Assembly (NCBI RefSeq): GCF_016903815.1
Contig: NZ_CP069973.1
Origin: Escherichia coli
Lineage (GTDB): Bacteria > Pseudomonadota > Gammaproteobacteria > Enterobacterales > Enterobacteriaceae
DNA length: 64,000 bases
Direction: 5' to 3' (one strand)
Shown: positions 14,798 to 21,383 of the stretch, piece after piece
Numbering within the stretch: position 1 is the first letter of the stretch
How the letters are laid out: every line of letters starts with the position of its first letter
Notes under the pieces: model-generated
Database searches by the model: none
What the model was told of the DNA's origin: nothing
What the model saw: the letters and a program-made list of their open reading frames with translations, nothing else
Made by a program: the position numbers and the translations under genes

Positions 14798-15747
<950 letters not shown>

Positions 15748-15773
<26 letters not shown>

Positions 15774-16476
15774 GATGCCAGCGCAGCAAGTTTGCCATCG
15801 CAAAGAGATATTTTTCGCTGGCTTCGTCGGAGGAGATGGGTGGAAACTCTGCGGTGATGCAATGCAGGTTGAGATCCGCACACCAACTGCCGAAAGAGCC
15901 AGGCGTTTCATAACCGACGCTGGTTACCAGAGGCAATTCAAACGCCTGGGCCAGCCATTCACCTAATTCGCTGTGTCTGGGATCTTCAATACAGGCCAGC
16001 GGATCGTGGAATGAGACCACCCAGGCGGGTTGAATGCGGTGTATAAGCTGGCACAGCGCCTGGGTTTCAGGTTCAGAGCCAGGTTTGTCACCTGTCAGCA
16101 ATACGACATCACGTTCTTCAGCGGCGCTGTTCCAGCGATAAACGGTTTCACCTTCCTTCCAATTCGCCGCCGGAAAGTTTCTGTTTAAATCCACACCATT
16201 AGCATTGGCCCGTAACCCCAACTGGCAGCCGTCAGGATTCACACACAGCACCACATGATGACGGCGCAAAGAAGGTGTCAACGTCCGCAGAGCACAGGAG
16301 AGCGTGACGACCGAAGAGTTTTCATCACCGTGAGTGCCAGCCAGAATCAAACCACTTTCGCGGCTGGCTGCAGGGGCAGGAAACCAGATTAACGGCGCGC
16401 CCAATAATGAACGTCCGTAATGTTCTGTTCCGGGCGGAAATGCGCCGCGTTCGGCGCGTGGGCGGGTTACGGTCAT
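15748..16476 (-). CDS. mpaA: Murein tripeptide amidase (M14-like)
   Basis: Start is set at MTVTRPRAERG (242 aa). The metal-binding motif is GTHGDE. Confidence 0.92.
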
Positions 16477-16572
16477 GATCGTCTCTGGTTCAGGAAGTAT
16501 TACAGGCAGTGTTGTGCAAATTTTGCGGATTATCAAATCCTTTTCTTCAACGCTATGTCATCGATCTTGTAT

Positions 16573-16601
16573 CACTTTTTTGCCGGAAGTTGTTTGCATT
16601 T
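16573..16601. repeat. Copy A of a conserved 29-bp motif (upstream of mpaA)
   Basis: CACTTTTTTGccGGAAGTTGTTTGCATTT. 27 of 29 positions are identical to 19684-19712. Confidence 0.8.
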
Positions 16602-16766
16602 TCATTGATGTGCAGATATTAGAATTGTCGTAATGTTATATACATGGCGTATTTTATTCTTACTGGTTCTACACATGTTAATCGCATCTGATTGATCAGT
16701 TCACCTTAATAAGTTTAATAAATCGTACTGCACATAGTACAGTACGAAGGTAGCTATATAATTGAT

Positions 16767-17405
16767 TTACATGAAGAATGGCTTATCGCCATCAGTCCCG
16801 GGCTGATTGATGCCTATATTCTCACCAATGTGTTTCTCAGGTTTATCGATGATATCTGTAATTAATGCTGCGACACTCTTACGTGATACGATCGTACCTT
16901 TGAATGGTTCATTGCGTGAGGTAAGCTCATAATCAATAATATCTTCATCGGTCAGCCAGGCAGGGCGAAGAATTGTATATTCCAGTCCAGAAGCCTCAAT
17001 TGCATCCGCAGCCCTGCGGAATGGTTTTAGGGGCTCACAAATAACTGCATTATTCCATTCGCCAAATTTTCCTGGAACTTCATCATAAATACCGAGGGAA
17101 AGAACAAAGATCAGACGTTTAACATCACAGGCTTTCATCGCAGCGATCACTGAATTTGCCTGAATATCTAAATCTTCCCCCGTAAGGTTGGCATACACAA
17201 CATCCTGTCCCTGCATGGCCTGCTTCAGTGCTGCATGATTCAGTACATCCCCCATAATAATCTTGCTATTAGTTGGATAGGGTTTGTGGATTTTTGCTGG
17301 CTGACGGGCAAATAAAGTTTGTTTAATGGTTTGTTTATCTGCCAGTTGATTAATCACATGGCGGGCTATCTGACCGCCAGCACCAAGAATCAGTACATTT
17401 TTCAT
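16767..17405 (-). CDS. ymjC: NAD(P)-binding atypical SDR / NmrA-like protein (intact form of the K-12 ymjC/ymjD remnant)
   Basis: 212 aa with an N-terminal Rossmann motif (ILGAGGQIARH). It sits between mpaA and ycjY, where K-12 carries pseudogene fragments (from memory). Confidence 0.8.
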   Translation of the reverse strand: MKNVLILGAGGQIARHVINQLADKQTIKQTLFARQPAKIHKPYPTNSKIIMGDVLNHAALKQAMQGQDVVYANLTGEDLDIQANSVIAAMKACDVKRLIFVLSLGIYDEVPGKFGEWNNAVICEPLKPFRRAADAIEASGLEYTILRPAWLTDEDIIDYELTSRNEPFKGTIVSRKSVAALITDIIDKPEKHIGENIGINQPGTDGDKPFFM

Positions 17406-17475
17406 GAAACTTTTCCCAGATTATTGGCAGCAATATGCCAGGCCATATCACTATTACGGATTTGAATATGTTTCA

Positions 17476-18396
17476 TTACAGAGTTTCCTCAAAGAACGGC
17501 GCTAATACTGAAATTGCTTCAGCCACATAGACTTTGCCGTCATAAAGATCCATATGGTTTGCGCCTTCAACAATGTGATAGCGTTTATCCTGGCTTGATG
17601 CTCGATCGTACAGGTCGTCACTCATCCATTTGCTCCCTGCCTGGCTGCCCGCCACAATCTGTATCGGCTGAGTCAGGTACACTTCCGCCATATGGTAAGC
17701 ATCATAGGTAATAATCTGGTTAAGGCTGCGCAAAGTAGCGTAACCCGGTGCTGTTGGATACTGCGCGCGAGGGGTGTGGTAATACTCCCAGGCCTGACGC
17801 AGTTCTTCGTTCGGCGCATCGGACTCCTTCATTGGTGCCAGTGGCATGGTGGCGTATTCTCCGCTGCTAATATCGCTGGTTCGGGCGTTTGAACCCGCGT
17901 CAACGTATGGTAGGGCATCAATAGATTTCACATTGTTTTCCCAACCATTACGGAACATCGAACCAATATTGACCGCACTAACAGTACCGATGGCCTTGAT
18001 GCGGCGATCCTGAATTGCAGCATTGGCTGTATATCCTGCACCGGCACAAATTCCCATCGCACCAATTCGGCTATTGTCGACATAAGAAAGCGTTGTCAGA
18101 TAATCAATCACGGCACTGACGTCTTCAGTACGAATGTATGGGTTTTCTAACTGACGCGGCTCGCCGCCGCTTTCACCTTGATAAGATGCGTCATAAGCAA
18201 TAGTGACAAATCCCTTTTCCGCCAGTTTTTCGGCATAGGTTCCAGCCGTTTGCTCTTTAACGCCCCCACCTGGGTGAGATACCACAATTGCCGGATACTG
18301 ACGGGTTTCATCAAATTTTGGAGGGAAATAGATCACTGCAGACAAAGAGATGGTTGGATTATTGCTGTTAGTGAAGCTGACTTTATTATTCATCAT
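17476..18396 (-). CDS. ycjY: Alpha/beta hydrolase
   Basis: Start is set at MMNNKVSF (306 aa). It has an alpha/beta-hydrolase-like nucleophile elbow (GICAG). Confidence 0.88.
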   Translation of the reverse strand: MMNNKVSFTNSNNPTISLSAVIYFPPKFDETRQYPAIVVSHPGGGVKEQTAGTYAEKLAEKGFVTIAYDASYQGESGGEPRQLENPYIRTEDVSAVIDYLTTLSYVDNSRIGAMGICAGAGYTANAAIQDRRIKAIGTVSAVNIGSMFRNGWENNVKSIDALPYVDAGSNARTSDISSGEYATMPLAPMKESDAPNEELRQAWEYYHTPRAQYPTAPGYATLRSLNQIITYDAYHMAEVYLTQPIQIVAGSQAGSKWMSDDLYDRASSQDKRYHIVEGANHMDLYDGKVYVAEAISVLAPFFEETL

Positions 18397-18533
18397 TCCG
18401 TTCCTCATGGAGTTGTCGGTTCGTTTTAACGGTTGGTGATATCACTATAGATATTGATCATTAAGTTGATTAGACCCAAAATCATGATTAGACCTATCAT
18501 TTAAATGATTAATAGATTGTATGGAGATACTGA

Positions 18534-19433
18534 ATGAAGCGTGAAGAAATCGCTGATCTGATGGCGTTTGTCGTCGTTGCAGAGGAGCGTAGCTTCACTC
18601 GCGCAGCAGCCCGCCTGAGCATGGCGCAGTCAGCTTTAAGCCAGATAGTGCGCCGTATAGAAGAACGATTGGGATTGCGGCTTCTGACACGAACCACGCG
18701 CAGCGTTGTACCCACTGAAGCGGGCGAGCATCTTTTGTCTGTTCTTGGCCCTATGTTGCATGACATAGATTCTGCCCTGACATCCCTGAGCGATCTGCAG
18801 AACCGCCCATCCGGGACAATACGTATTACTACTGTAGAACATGCAGCAAAAACGATATTGTTACCAGCTATGCGCACATTCCTGAAATCGCATCCTGAAA
18901 TTGATATCCAGCTTACCATTGATTATGGTTTGACCGATGTCGTTTCTGAACGTTTTGATGCAGGCGTCCGTCTGGGTGGGGAGATGGATAAAGATATGAT
19001 CGCCATTCGAATCGGGCCAGATATACCAATGGCTATTGTTGGCTCACCGGATTATTTTTCTCGTCGAAGTGCTCCAACGTCAGTGTCACAATTAATAGAT
19101 CATCAGGCAATTAATTTGTATCTTCCCACATCGGGTACAGCAAATCGCTGGAGATTAATACGCGGTGGACGTGAAGTTCGTGTTCGCATGGAAGGTCAGC
19201 TTTTACTGAATACGATAGACCTGATCATTGATGCTGCAATTGATGGGCATGGATTGGCGTATCTACCTTATGATCAGGTTGAGCGGGCTATTAAAGAAAA
19301 AAAACTGATACGTGTTTTGGATAAATTCACACCAGATTTACCCGGTTATCACCTGTACTATCCACACCGTCGACATGCTGGCTCGGCATTCTCATTATTT
19401 ATAGATAGGCTGAAGTATAAAGGTGCTGTTTAG
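18534..19433 (+). CDS. pgrR: LysR-family regulator of murein peptide recycling genes
   Basis: 299 aa with a LysR N-terminal HTH (FVVVAEERSFTRAAARLSMAQSALSQIVRRIE). It is divergent from ycjY. Confidence 0.92.
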   Translation: MKREEIADLMAFVVVAEERSFTRAAARLSMAQSALSQIVRRIEERLGLRLLTRTTRSVVPTEAGEHLLSVLGPMLHDIDSALTSLSDLQNRPSGTIRITTVEHAAKTILLPAMRTFLKSHPEIDIQLTIDYGLTDVVSERFDAGVRLGGEMDKDMIAIRIGPDIPMAIVGSPDYFSRRSAPTSVSQLIDHQAINLYLPTSGTANRWRLIRGGREVRVRMEGQLLLNTIDLIIDAAIDGHGLAYLPYDQVERAIKEKKLIRVLDKFTPDLPGYHLYYPHRRHAGSAFSLFIDRLKYKGAV

Positions 19434-19683
19434 CACTACTTGCTGATACATTAATTTAATTCTTCTCTTAACGTATTCTCAGTTCCTTTCAACGTTTTGG
19501 TCATTTTTTATTCTTCGTACAATGGCGACAGATGCTGATTATGATACCGAAAACGGGTTTGAACGTGCGAAGCCCGAACGTAGTGTTCGGAGTTCTATGT
19601 GCTTTACCGCATTTTGGAGACTATTATTTACACTAAATCTGATTTGATATATTGATACTTAAAACATTTGATGCTTCCTTTGT

Positions 19684-19712
19684 CACTTTTTTGATGGAAG
19701 TTGTTTGCATTT
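19684..19712. repeat. Copy B of the conserved 29-bp motif (upstream of mppA)
   Basis: CACTTTTTTGatGGAAGTTGTTTGCATTT, 58-86 bp upstream of the mppA start. Confidence 0.8.
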
Positions 19713-19769
19713 CTTTAAGGCGAAACAAATAATTACGCATCAATTTTAATGTCGGTTAGAGGGAAACTT

Positions 19770-21383
19770 ATGAAGCACTCTGTTTCAGTCACGTGTTGTG
19801 CGCTGTTGGTCAGCAGCATTTCTCTTTCGTATGCTGCTGAAGTTCCGAGCGGCACAGTACTGGCAGAGAAGCAGGAGCTGGTGCGCCACATTAAAGATGA
19901 GCCAGCGTCTCTGGATCCCGCTAAAGCCGTGGGCCTGCCGGAGATTCAGGTCATTCGCGATCTGTTTGAAGGACTGGTGAATCAGAACGAGAAAGGGGAG
20001 ATTGTCCCCGGCGTTGCGACTCAGTGGAAAAGTAATGACAACCGTATTTGGACTTTTACCCTGCGCGATAACGCAAAATGGGCGGATGGCACACCGGTAA
20101 CGGCGCAAGATTTTGTCTACAGCTGGCAACGTCTGGTGGACCCAAAAACATTGTCGCCATTTGCATGGTTTGCCGCGCTGGCGGGAATCAACAACGCACA
20201 GGCGATTATTGATGGTAAAGCCACGCCTGACCAGCTTGGCGTCACCGCAGTTGATGCCCATACTTTGAAAATCCAGCTTGATAAACCGTTGCCGTGGTTT
20301 GTGAATTTAACCGCTAACTTTGCCTTCTTCCCGGTGCAAAAAGCCAACGTAGAAAGTAGTAAAGAGTGGACGAAACCCGGAAAACTGATCGGTAATGGCG
20401 CTTATGTTCTTAAAGAGCGCGTAGTCAATGAAAAACTGGTCGTGGTACCGAATACCCATTATTGGGATAACGCCAAAACGGTGCTGCAAAAAGTGACCTT
20501 CCTGCCAATTAATCAGGAATCCGCAGCCACTAAGCGTTATCTCGCGGGGGATATTGATATCACCGAATCCTTCCCGAAAAATATGTATCAGAAGCTGTTG
20601 AAGGATATTCCGGGGCAGGTTTATACGCCGCCGCAGCTCGGGACCTATTATTATGCGTTTAACACGCAAAAAGGGCCGACGGCCGATCAGCGTGTTCGCC
20701 TGGCATTAAGTATGACGATAGATCGCCGCCTGATGACCGAAAAAGTGTTGGGGACGGGGGAAAAGCCAGCGTGGCATTTTACACCAGATGTTACTGCCGG
20801 TTTTACGCCGGAGCCTTCGCCGTTTGAACAAATGAGTCAGGAAGAACTGAATGCGCAGGCAAAAACTTTGTTGAGCGCAGCTGGTTATGGTCCGCAAAAA
20901 CCGCTGAAGCTGACGCTTTTGTATAACACTTCAGAAAACCATCAAAAAATTGCGATTGCTGTAGCATCGATGTGGAAAAAGAACCTTGGCGTAGATGTTA
21001 AATTGCAGAATCAGGAATGGAAAACCTATATCGATAGCCGTAACACCGGCAATTTTGATGTTATCCGCGCCTCATGGGTAGGGGATTATAATGAACCCTC
21101 CACTTTCCTTACGTTGTTAACGTCAACGCATTCAGGGAATATTTCACGCTTTAACAATCCGGCATACGACAAAGTACTGGCCCAGGCATCAACGGAAAAT
21201 ACCGTTAAAGCGCGTAATGCCGATTACAATGCGGCAGAAAAAATCCTCATGGAGCAAGCACCGATTGCACCAATTTATCAATATACCAATGGACGATTAA
21301 TCAAGCCGTGGCTGAAAGGTTATCCCATTAATAACCCGGAAGATGTGGCGTACAGTCGGACTATGTATATTGTGAAGCATTGA
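19770..21383 (+). CDS. mppA: Periplasmic murein tripeptide-binding protein
   Basis: Start is set at MKHSVSVTCCALLVSSISLSYA (537 aa). It has a signal peptide and belongs to solute-binding protein (SBP) family 5 (OppA-like). Confidence 0.94.
   Translation: MKHSVSVTCCALLVSSISLSYAAEVPSGTVLAEKQELVRHIKDEPASLDPAKAVGLPEIQVIRDLFEGLVNQNEKGEIVPGVATQWKSNDNRIWTFTLRDNAKWADGTPVTAQDFVYSWQRLVDPKTLSPFAWFAALAGINNAQAIIDGKATPDQLGVTAVDAHTLKIQLDKPLPWFVNLTANFAFFPVQKANVESSKEWTKPGKLIGNGAYVLKERVVNEKLVVVPNTHYWDNAKTVLQKVTFLPINQESAATKRYLAGDIDITESFPKNMYQKLLKDIPGQVYTPPQLGTYYYAFNTQKGPTADQRVRLALSMTIDRRLMTEKVLGTGEKPAWHFTPDVTAGFTPEPSPFEQMSQEELNAQAKTLLSAAGYGPQKPLKLTLLYNTSENHQKIAIAVASMWKKNLGVDVKLQNQEWKTYIDSRNTGNFDVIRASWVGDYNEPSTFLTLLTSTHSGNISRFNNPAYDKVLAQASTENTVKARNADYNAAEKILMEQAPIAPIYQYTNGRLIKPWLKGYPINNPEDVAYSRTMYIVKH

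Follow-up and report, generated by a model that had tools for sequence, protein, structure and literature searches.

We analyzed a 64,000-nucleotide stretch of Escherichia coli DNA (contig NZ_CP069973.1 of assembly GCF_016903815.1), hereafter the window, in which a short direct repeat is found on either side of a small group of genes between mpaA and mppA. The gene mpaA, for murein tripeptide amidase, occupies positions 15748-16476 on the minus strand with its start codon at 16476, with ycjG (14808-15773, plus strand) at its other end. The gene mppA, for the murein tripeptide-binding protein, occupies 19770-21383 on the plus strand, with its ATG at 19770. Copy 1 of the repeat, CACTTTTTTGCCGGAAGTTGTTTGCATTT, lies at 16573-16601, which is 97-125 bp upstream of mpaA, and copy 2, CACTTTTTTGATGGAAGTTGTTTGCATTT, lies at 19684-19712, 58-86 bp upstream of mppA. 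Both are on the plus strand, and they are identical at 27 of 29 positions. The mismatches are adjacent, at motif positions 11 and 12, with CC in copy 1 and AT in copy 2, and we refer to these as the GCC and GAT states. The positions of the copies, their distances from the two genes and their identity had been given by a first-pass annotation, made by a model from the sequence and its open reading frames, and they were confirmed in the sequence. Over 6 kb the window has 100% identity to E. coli strain 7/2. That annotation also had the copies bracketing ymjC-ycjY-pgrR, and this is borne out, with the remark that its "ymjC" is here an intact gene for a short-chain dehydrogenase/reductase (SDR) of 212 amino acids and not the pseudogene of K-12. 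A repeat finder stretched the pair to 37 nt at 86% identity; the added 8 nt match at 5 positions only, and the solid duplication is 29-30 bp.

The motif is scarce. With up to three mismatches allowed it occurred at two places only in the 64-kb window, and none of 100 dinucleotide shuffles contained any match. A genome-wide search for further copies, which the first-pass annotation had suggested, was made with a 53-bp query around copy 2 and returned a median of 2 and a maximum of 4 places per genome across 5418 E. coli genomes. Because of these low counts, the motif is not a dispersed family, and the annotation's own caution that it might belong to a widespread repeat family can be set aside. 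Membership in a family of the REP, ERIC or MITE kind has no support beyond the two copies themselves. No hairpin was predicted in the motif (z-scores of +0.1 to +1.05), the motif with its flanks folded no better than shuffles on either strand, and an Rfam scan of 15500-20500 gave sub-threshold chance matches and nothing above threshold. We regard this explanation as practically discounted.

The origin of the pair became apparent from the same site in other genomes. We collected 80 species-representative loci around MpaA homologues and located the neighboring genes in each; the mppA neighbors were placed by match positions only, and adjacency was confirmed directly from the sequences. Outside of E. 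coli, Shigella and Escherichia sp. E1V33, mppA and mpaA are direct neighbors that diverge from a spacer of approximately 183 bp. Lineages with this arrangement include Escherichia sp. MOD1-EC7003, E. ruysiae, E. whittamii, about 20 Citrobacter, many Enterobacter, Leclercia, Lelliottia and others. The motif is present as a single copy in the uninterrupted spacers of 72 species that lack the intervening genes (the cassette). In the window, the 96 bp proximal to mpaA (16477-16572, minus strand, collinear with the outgroup spacers), one 29-bp motif, and the 57 bp proximal to mppA (19713-19769, plus strand, including a -10-like AATAAT at 19728-19733) sum to 182 bp and correspond to the outgroup spacer end to end. 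This composite spacer is identical to that of MOD1-EC7003 at 172 of 183 positions, and to those of six E. coli strains with an empty site at 178-181 of 182. Empty sites are found within E. coli itself: a query across the joined flanks was present in 173 of the 5418 complete genomes. Among the matches listed, 25 of 25 empty-site E. coli align as one uninterrupted piece, including IAI39, CE10 and ST648, which we take to be phylogroup F. Each empty site contains one copy, with the outer flanks of both copies contiguous.

As the uninterrupted spacers consist of flank, one copy and flank, the two copies are one segment of the ancestral mpaA-mppA spacer, duplicated so as to flank a 3082-bp insert (16602-19683) that is found in neither the outgroup nor the empty-site spacers. 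The duplication of 29-30 bp is very likely the scar of a foreign block that inserted upstream of the mppA -35 element early in the E. coli lineage. Direct repeats left by a 3.1-kb rearrangement had been one of the two explanations offered in the first-pass annotation, and on this it was essentially right. We see here another case of a known feature, the genomic islet flanked by direct repeats.

Escherichia sp. E1V33 (locus L009, 5459-7905) has a cassette of the K-12 type, with a PgrR that is 99% identical, in a setting where the flanking genes are only 94-97% identical, and has a copy 2 of the native type (GCC...ATTTGC). The cassette looks like an import from E. coli via homologous recombination whose right-hand crossover fell at copy 2 or close to it. 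We also considered the reverse polarity, in which the occupied state would be ancestral and the cassette lost elsewhere. It was rejected, given that the cassette is at this site only in E. coli/Shigella and in the E1V33 import; an identity of 27 of 29 between the copies, set against a spacer divergence of roughly 30% between genera, also rules it out.

The inserted block has several forms, measuring 3082 bp in the window strain, approximately 3.96 kb in a four-gene form and 2.42 kb in the K-12 form. Read from the mpaA side, the window form has first a terminator-like hairpin (16723-16747, minus strand) downstream of the intact NmrA-like SDR gene (16767-17405, minus strand), of which K-12 ymjC and ymjD are remnants. 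A remnant of a deleted second alpha/beta-hydrolase gene (17406-17475, minus strand) and the alpha/beta-hydrolase gene ycjY (17476-18396, minus strand) come next. The divergent ycjY-pgrR spacer, with a conserved core at 18466-18508, separates these from pgrR (ycjZ; 18534-19433, plus strand), the gene of a LysR-type regulator. The right end of the insert holds a decayed internal fragment of queH, for epoxyqueuosine reductase (19531-19605, plus strand). This relic was recognized by way of a 41-bp match of the right end to a plasmid queH gene; in tblastn it is identical to QueH residues 79-108 at 19 of 30 positions (E=1e-9), and PGAP calls it a pseudogene in two other strains as well. The relic lies between pgrR and copy 2, and a terminator-like hairpin at 19574-19590 falls inside it.

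Homologues of PgrR with 87-89% identity are present in Klebsiella, Raoultella, Kluyvera, Salmonella and Citrobacter. A set of four genes, for an NmrA-like SDR, two hydrolases and a LysR regulator, is common to the three contexts of the module that we examined. It stands beside genes for ParB, SSB and TacA in a metagenome contig (whose PgrR homologue is named by NCBI from Klebsiella variicola), beside those for AcaB, a topoisomerase and a ParE-like protein in Salmonella, and next to an integrase fragment in Kluyvera. In foreign contexts the module is sometimes extended by adh_short and OYE genes. DNA homology to the E. coli cassette is approximately 79% and covers only the genes and the SDR-distal spacer. 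The homology to the longer module ends at about the start codon of adh_short, and no relic of this gene was detected in the left 94 bp of the insert. The G+C content is 38-47% over most of the insert, compared to 52-55% in mpaA and ycjG. Judged by its composition, the queH relic and the occurrence of the module elsewhere, the block is of foreign origin, with the module residing in plasmid- or island-like contexts of other genera. The genes pgrR, ycjY and ymjC are thus not native here, and represent a horizontally moving hydrolase/SDR/LysR module lodged between two divergent murein-peptide genes. Nucleotide diversity across ten E. coli loci is 1.1-1.5% for ycjY and pgrR and 1.3-1.7% for mpaA and mppA. 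The diversity of the cassette matches that of the flanking genes, and the insertion is therefore old within E. coli.

The cassette can also be lost. In every occupied E. coli locus, copy 1 has GCC, the ancestral state seen in the outgroups, and copy 2 the derived GAT. Fourteen E. coli genomes have an empty site of chimeric make-up, whereby a single GAT-type copy is joined to the left flank of copy 1. One of these, CP131_Sichuan, matches the occupied K-12-like strain BAP1 at every one of 1271 bp of flank. As a chimeric GAT-type empty site here has flanks identical to those of an occupied strain, CP131_Sichuan demonstrates that the cassette was lost precisely, through recombination of one copy with the other. 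A single copy is regenerated in all 14, and the GAT-type empties bear the mark of a precise deletion by a crossover within the first 10 bp of the repeat. The three that we examined have three different flank haplotypes, and excision has probably occurred more than once. With 14 chimeric empties in 5418 genomes, it appears to be rare. Uninterrupted identity between the copies is 10 + 17 bp, and approximately 25 bp is the threshold for efficient RecA recombination. Since the identity is below the length for efficient RecA-dependent exchange, the excision probably takes place by RecA-independent slippage between the short repeats, a mechanism that we infer from repeat length.

We turn to what the segment does at each of its two locations. 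In the mppA region the only promoter-like match is TTTGCA (19704-19709) and AATAAT (19728-19733) at a spacing of 18 bp, and it overlaps copy 2. On the mppA side of the 72-spacer alignment, two elements are highly conserved, AAG..TTTGCATTTC (equivalent to the 3' half of the motif) and CGAAACAAATAATTACGCAT, with a variable gap between them. The former and the -10 block are conserved to at least 80-90% over the 72 species, and CGAAACAAATAATTACGCAT is almost invariant. Conservation is among the lowest in the alignment at the two positions where the copies mismatch. Hexamers of the sigma-70 type, spaced by 16-18 bp and conserved in orthologues, are found for mppA at copy 2 only. As the conserved blocks coincide with the sole promoter-like match, copy 2 is best read as the putative -35 element and upstream part of the native mppA promoter. 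For copy 2, the 12 E. coli loci that we read are all identical. For copy 1, 5 of 15 Escherichia loci (E1V33 and 14 from E. coli or Shigella) show variation: TTTGCA has become TTTGTA in four loci, T has changed to C in two and to A in one, and the fifth has an extra T.

On the mpaA side, the blocks conserved over the 72 species are GCAGTGTTGTGCAAA and ATCAAAT. They suggest an mpaA promoter on the minus strand with -35 TTGATA (16536-16531), a 17-nt spacer and -10 AACACT (16513-16508), which matches the consensus at 8 of 12 positions and is below the threshold of the scanner. Copy 1 lies approximately 37 bp upstream of this presumptive -35 element and probably represents a vestige of the mppA-upstream segment that was duplicated. 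Alternatively, the segment may be a regulatory module that served both of the ancestral divergent promoters (an activator site or an UP element, for example), with both copies kept by need; this would be compatible with an insertional origin. The segment is indeed partly conserved across genera (ATCA.TTTT..G, then AAGTT.TTTGCATTTC) and sits between two putative back-to-back promoters, and a 661-bp deletion in K-12-type strains has its endpoint precisely at the 3' boundary of copy 1, sparing it. Against this, copy 1 bears substitutions or an indel in the five loci given above, even in the best-conserved TTTGCA, whereas copy 2 is constant; its distance from the mpaA -35 element exceeds that typical of an UP element; and no transcription factor is known or was identified for the segment. 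We consider a need for both copies unlikely, if worth keeping in view, and favor the relic for copy 1.

Two further observations pertain to the mpaA side. The mpaA-proximal block AGTGTTGTGCAAAT (16508-16522) resembles AGTTGTTTGCATTT of the motif (16586-16601) at about 10 of 14 positions in the same orientation, the two being some 80 bp apart in the ancestral spacer; they may be two sites of one factor, or the likeness may be due to chance. At K-12 coordinate 1390559 on the minus strand, 39 nt inside mpaA, an RNA 3' end has been mapped (PMC7815308, supplement), a hint that transcripts are prematurely terminated or processed where mpaA begins.

The location of pgrR between the copies makes it tempting to see the motif as a shared operator, through which this LysR-type regulator controls both mpaA and mppA. 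This was the other explanation in the first-pass annotation, which held both genes to be reported PgrR targets. For mpaA the claim stands, by way of the K-12 ycjY-ymjDC-mpaA operon, and the literature has mpaA expression as PgrR-dependent in K-12. For mppA it does not, as the listed regulon comprises ycjG, ycjXF-tyrR and ycjY-ymjDC-mpaA, without mppA (PMC5934670). The list of sites from SELEX (systematic evolution of ligands by exponential enrichment) has the ycjY/ycjZ spacer and ten others, with none upstream of mpaA or between pgrR and mppA (PMC5934670); the comparison that the annotation had recommended thus places no site at either copy. Negative autoregulation by PgrR via its own promoter region has been reported.

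The core of the ycjY-pgrR spacer (18466-18508) contains two copies of TGATTAGACC at a distance of 18 bp and, after them, the perfect palindrome TCATTTAAATGA. It is nearly invariant between E. coli and the roughly 79%-identical cassettes of Klebsiella, Salmonella and Kluyvera. Both elements occur in the window only here and have no resemblance to the motif. This core is, from its sequence, a strong candidate for the real PgrR operator. An operator role for the motif is very unlikely, because the core is unrelated to the motif and the motif is present in species without the cassette: in the 72 spacers it exists as a single copy with no pgrR at the locus, and so predates the regulator there. Classical LysR-type operators are T-N11-A dyads in the divergent spacer of regulator and target. 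The repeats share with these the adjoining LysR gene, and differ in being without dyad symmetry or secondary structure, outside the divergent spacer of the regulator, older than it at the locus and absent from the SELEX sites. Copy 1 is moreover polymorphic, and the insertion fully explains the duplication. The promoter module of the first-pass annotation survives in part: copy 2 holds the conserved mppA -35 region, and the shared PgrR operator is unsupported. In its place stands a documented evolutionary account of the locus.

The events would have been as follows. A foreign block, originally composed of the NmrA-like SDR gene, two hydrolase genes (the second being ycjY) and the LysR gene pgrR, with the queH fragment at one end, would have landed just upstream of the mppA -35 element in the early E. 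coli lineage and generated the 29-30-bp duplication. Copy 2 would have stayed in place as the native mppA -35 element with its upstream part, held constant by selection, and copy 1 would have been left over upstream of the mpaA promoter, free to drift. The copies would since have served as substrates for the rare precise excision that restores the ancestral spacer. As to how the duplication arose, the most likely route is an illegitimate insertion in which 29 bp were copied a second time, through either a staggered break or a template switch. The ends of the insert look arbitrary, one being near the start of the missing adh_short gene and the other at the queH fragment. Junctions made by template switching or microhomology repair may offer a parallel, in that they too combine non-homologous DNA with a short re-copied target and can later be lost by slippage.

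Transposition matches the locus in one respect, as target-site duplications also put target sequence on both sides of an insert in direct orientation. Those of IS elements and transposons are 2-14 bp, and to our knowledge 29-30 bp is too long for known transposases. The insert has no inverted repeats at its ends, and its genes are only of the SDR, hydrolase and LysR types, with no transposase. A duplication of this length falls in the size range of att sites, and the copies could be attL and attR of a site-specific island, with the segment upstream of mppA as attB and the recombinase acting in trans or since deleted. Islands and islets of this type resemble the locus in having a foreign block within identical or near-identical direct repeats some tens of bp long, one copy when empty, and a precise loss that regenerates it. 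The excision seen here is precise; both mismatches are together in one arm, as expected if attP had differed from attB; the insert has lost internal DNA, as seen from the queH relic; and the module adjoins an integrase fragment in Kluyvera. Other evidence disfavors such an island. No tyrosine or serine recombinase was found in or beside the island; no integrase or excisionase gene or relic is annotated in the insert, nor was there a tblastn match to the Kluyvera integrase fragment; and a tRNA or other usual target is absent. The motif has no exact match in 2.9 million viral contigs, and the other module contexts that we fetched share neither the insert ends nor the motif. The insertion is in only one lineage among the 80 species loci, and excision appears rare. 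We judge an att island to be improbable.

A related observation comes from Salmonella. In S. enterica subsp. arizonae (locus L027, 4848-8000) and diarizonae (locus L028, 4562-8000), an islet of cdtA-cdtB-cdtC, for cytolethal distending toxin, lies between mpaA and an mppA-like gene. Spacer homology stops inside the segment that matches the 29-bp motif, after ...CTGCCGGA in diarizonae, and the ancestral mppA promoter is gone from these loci. The same ~30 bp have here taken up a second insertion, independent of the first. That its junction falls within this segment speaks for an att site; that the islet has no matching second copy speaks against it. The ~30-bp segment upstream of the mppA -35 element might be a cryptic attB or a hotspot for repeated integration, by way of a non-canonical mechanism, a recombinase in trans or a staggered break, that leaves a target duplication of unusual length (29-30 bp). 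Its cargo would have differed between genera, with the pgrR cassette in E. coli and cdtABC in S. enterica subsp. arizonae and diarizonae. We hold this to be something of a long shot; if it were true, the cassette would be a reversible switch that couples the murein-peptide genes to, and uncouples them from, a foreign LysR regulator.

Several points weigh against our preferred account, that of an insertion scar. The insert, in spite of so long a duplication, comes with no transposase, integrase, terminal inverted repeats or tRNA target. Apart from the 41-bp queH match given above, a search for the donor with the 250-bp right end returned only mislabelled E. coli chromosomes and weak chance matches in the plasmid collection. 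The approximately 159 GCC-type empty sites may be a mixture of ancestral sites and excisions, because a crossover in the 17-bp right block yields a GCC product indistinguishable from the ancestral one. The assignments of copy 2 to the mppA promoter and of the mpaA promoter draw only on consensus and conservation. The supplements that we searched hold no start sites for mppA or mpaA, that of PMC7815308 having only 3' ends nearby and that of PMC10301672 nothing. Lastly, the polymorphism of copy 1 comes from 15 loci, which are not a population sample.

The inserted block was reduced by later deletions. The full four-gene form is found in CX07- and O157-type strains. In the window form most of the first hydrolase gene was lost via a deletion of approximately 879 bp that left 17406-17475. 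The protein of this lost alpha/beta-hydrolase gene is 42% identical to YcjY; the gene is kept in the CX07- and O157-type strains (locus L003, 3424-4356) and in all foreign versions of the module, and is frameshifted in O157:H7 FRIK1989. The additional 661-bp deletion of the K-12-type strains spans approximately 16603-17263, starts immediately 3' of an intact copy 1, and takes three quarters of the SDR gene, from its 3' end, along with the terminator-like hairpin (16723-16747). The K-12-type locus (L002) retains no site of this kind between ycjY and mpaA. Because the deletion appears to have removed the SDR terminator, the K-12 "ycjY-ymjDC-mpaA operon" is probably lineage-specific. Control of mpaA by PgrR, and hence the name "peptidoglycan recycling regulator", may not hold across the species or the family. 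The locus thus exists in at least five states (empty, four-gene, three-gene, K-12-type and excised), which constitute a natural test set for how an insertion rewires two back-to-back promoters.

Some minor variants complete the picture. On the mpaA strand, the junction of the K-12-type deletion (L002, 2603) gives rise to a promoter-like TCCACA-16-TAAAAT, to which the final bases of the motif contribute. In E. coli O121 strain 201805972, pgrR is split by an IS2 insertion. A deletion affecting ycjY and pgrR was seen in one strain, the chicken isolate VTB96929v, where it fuses truncated forms of both genes.

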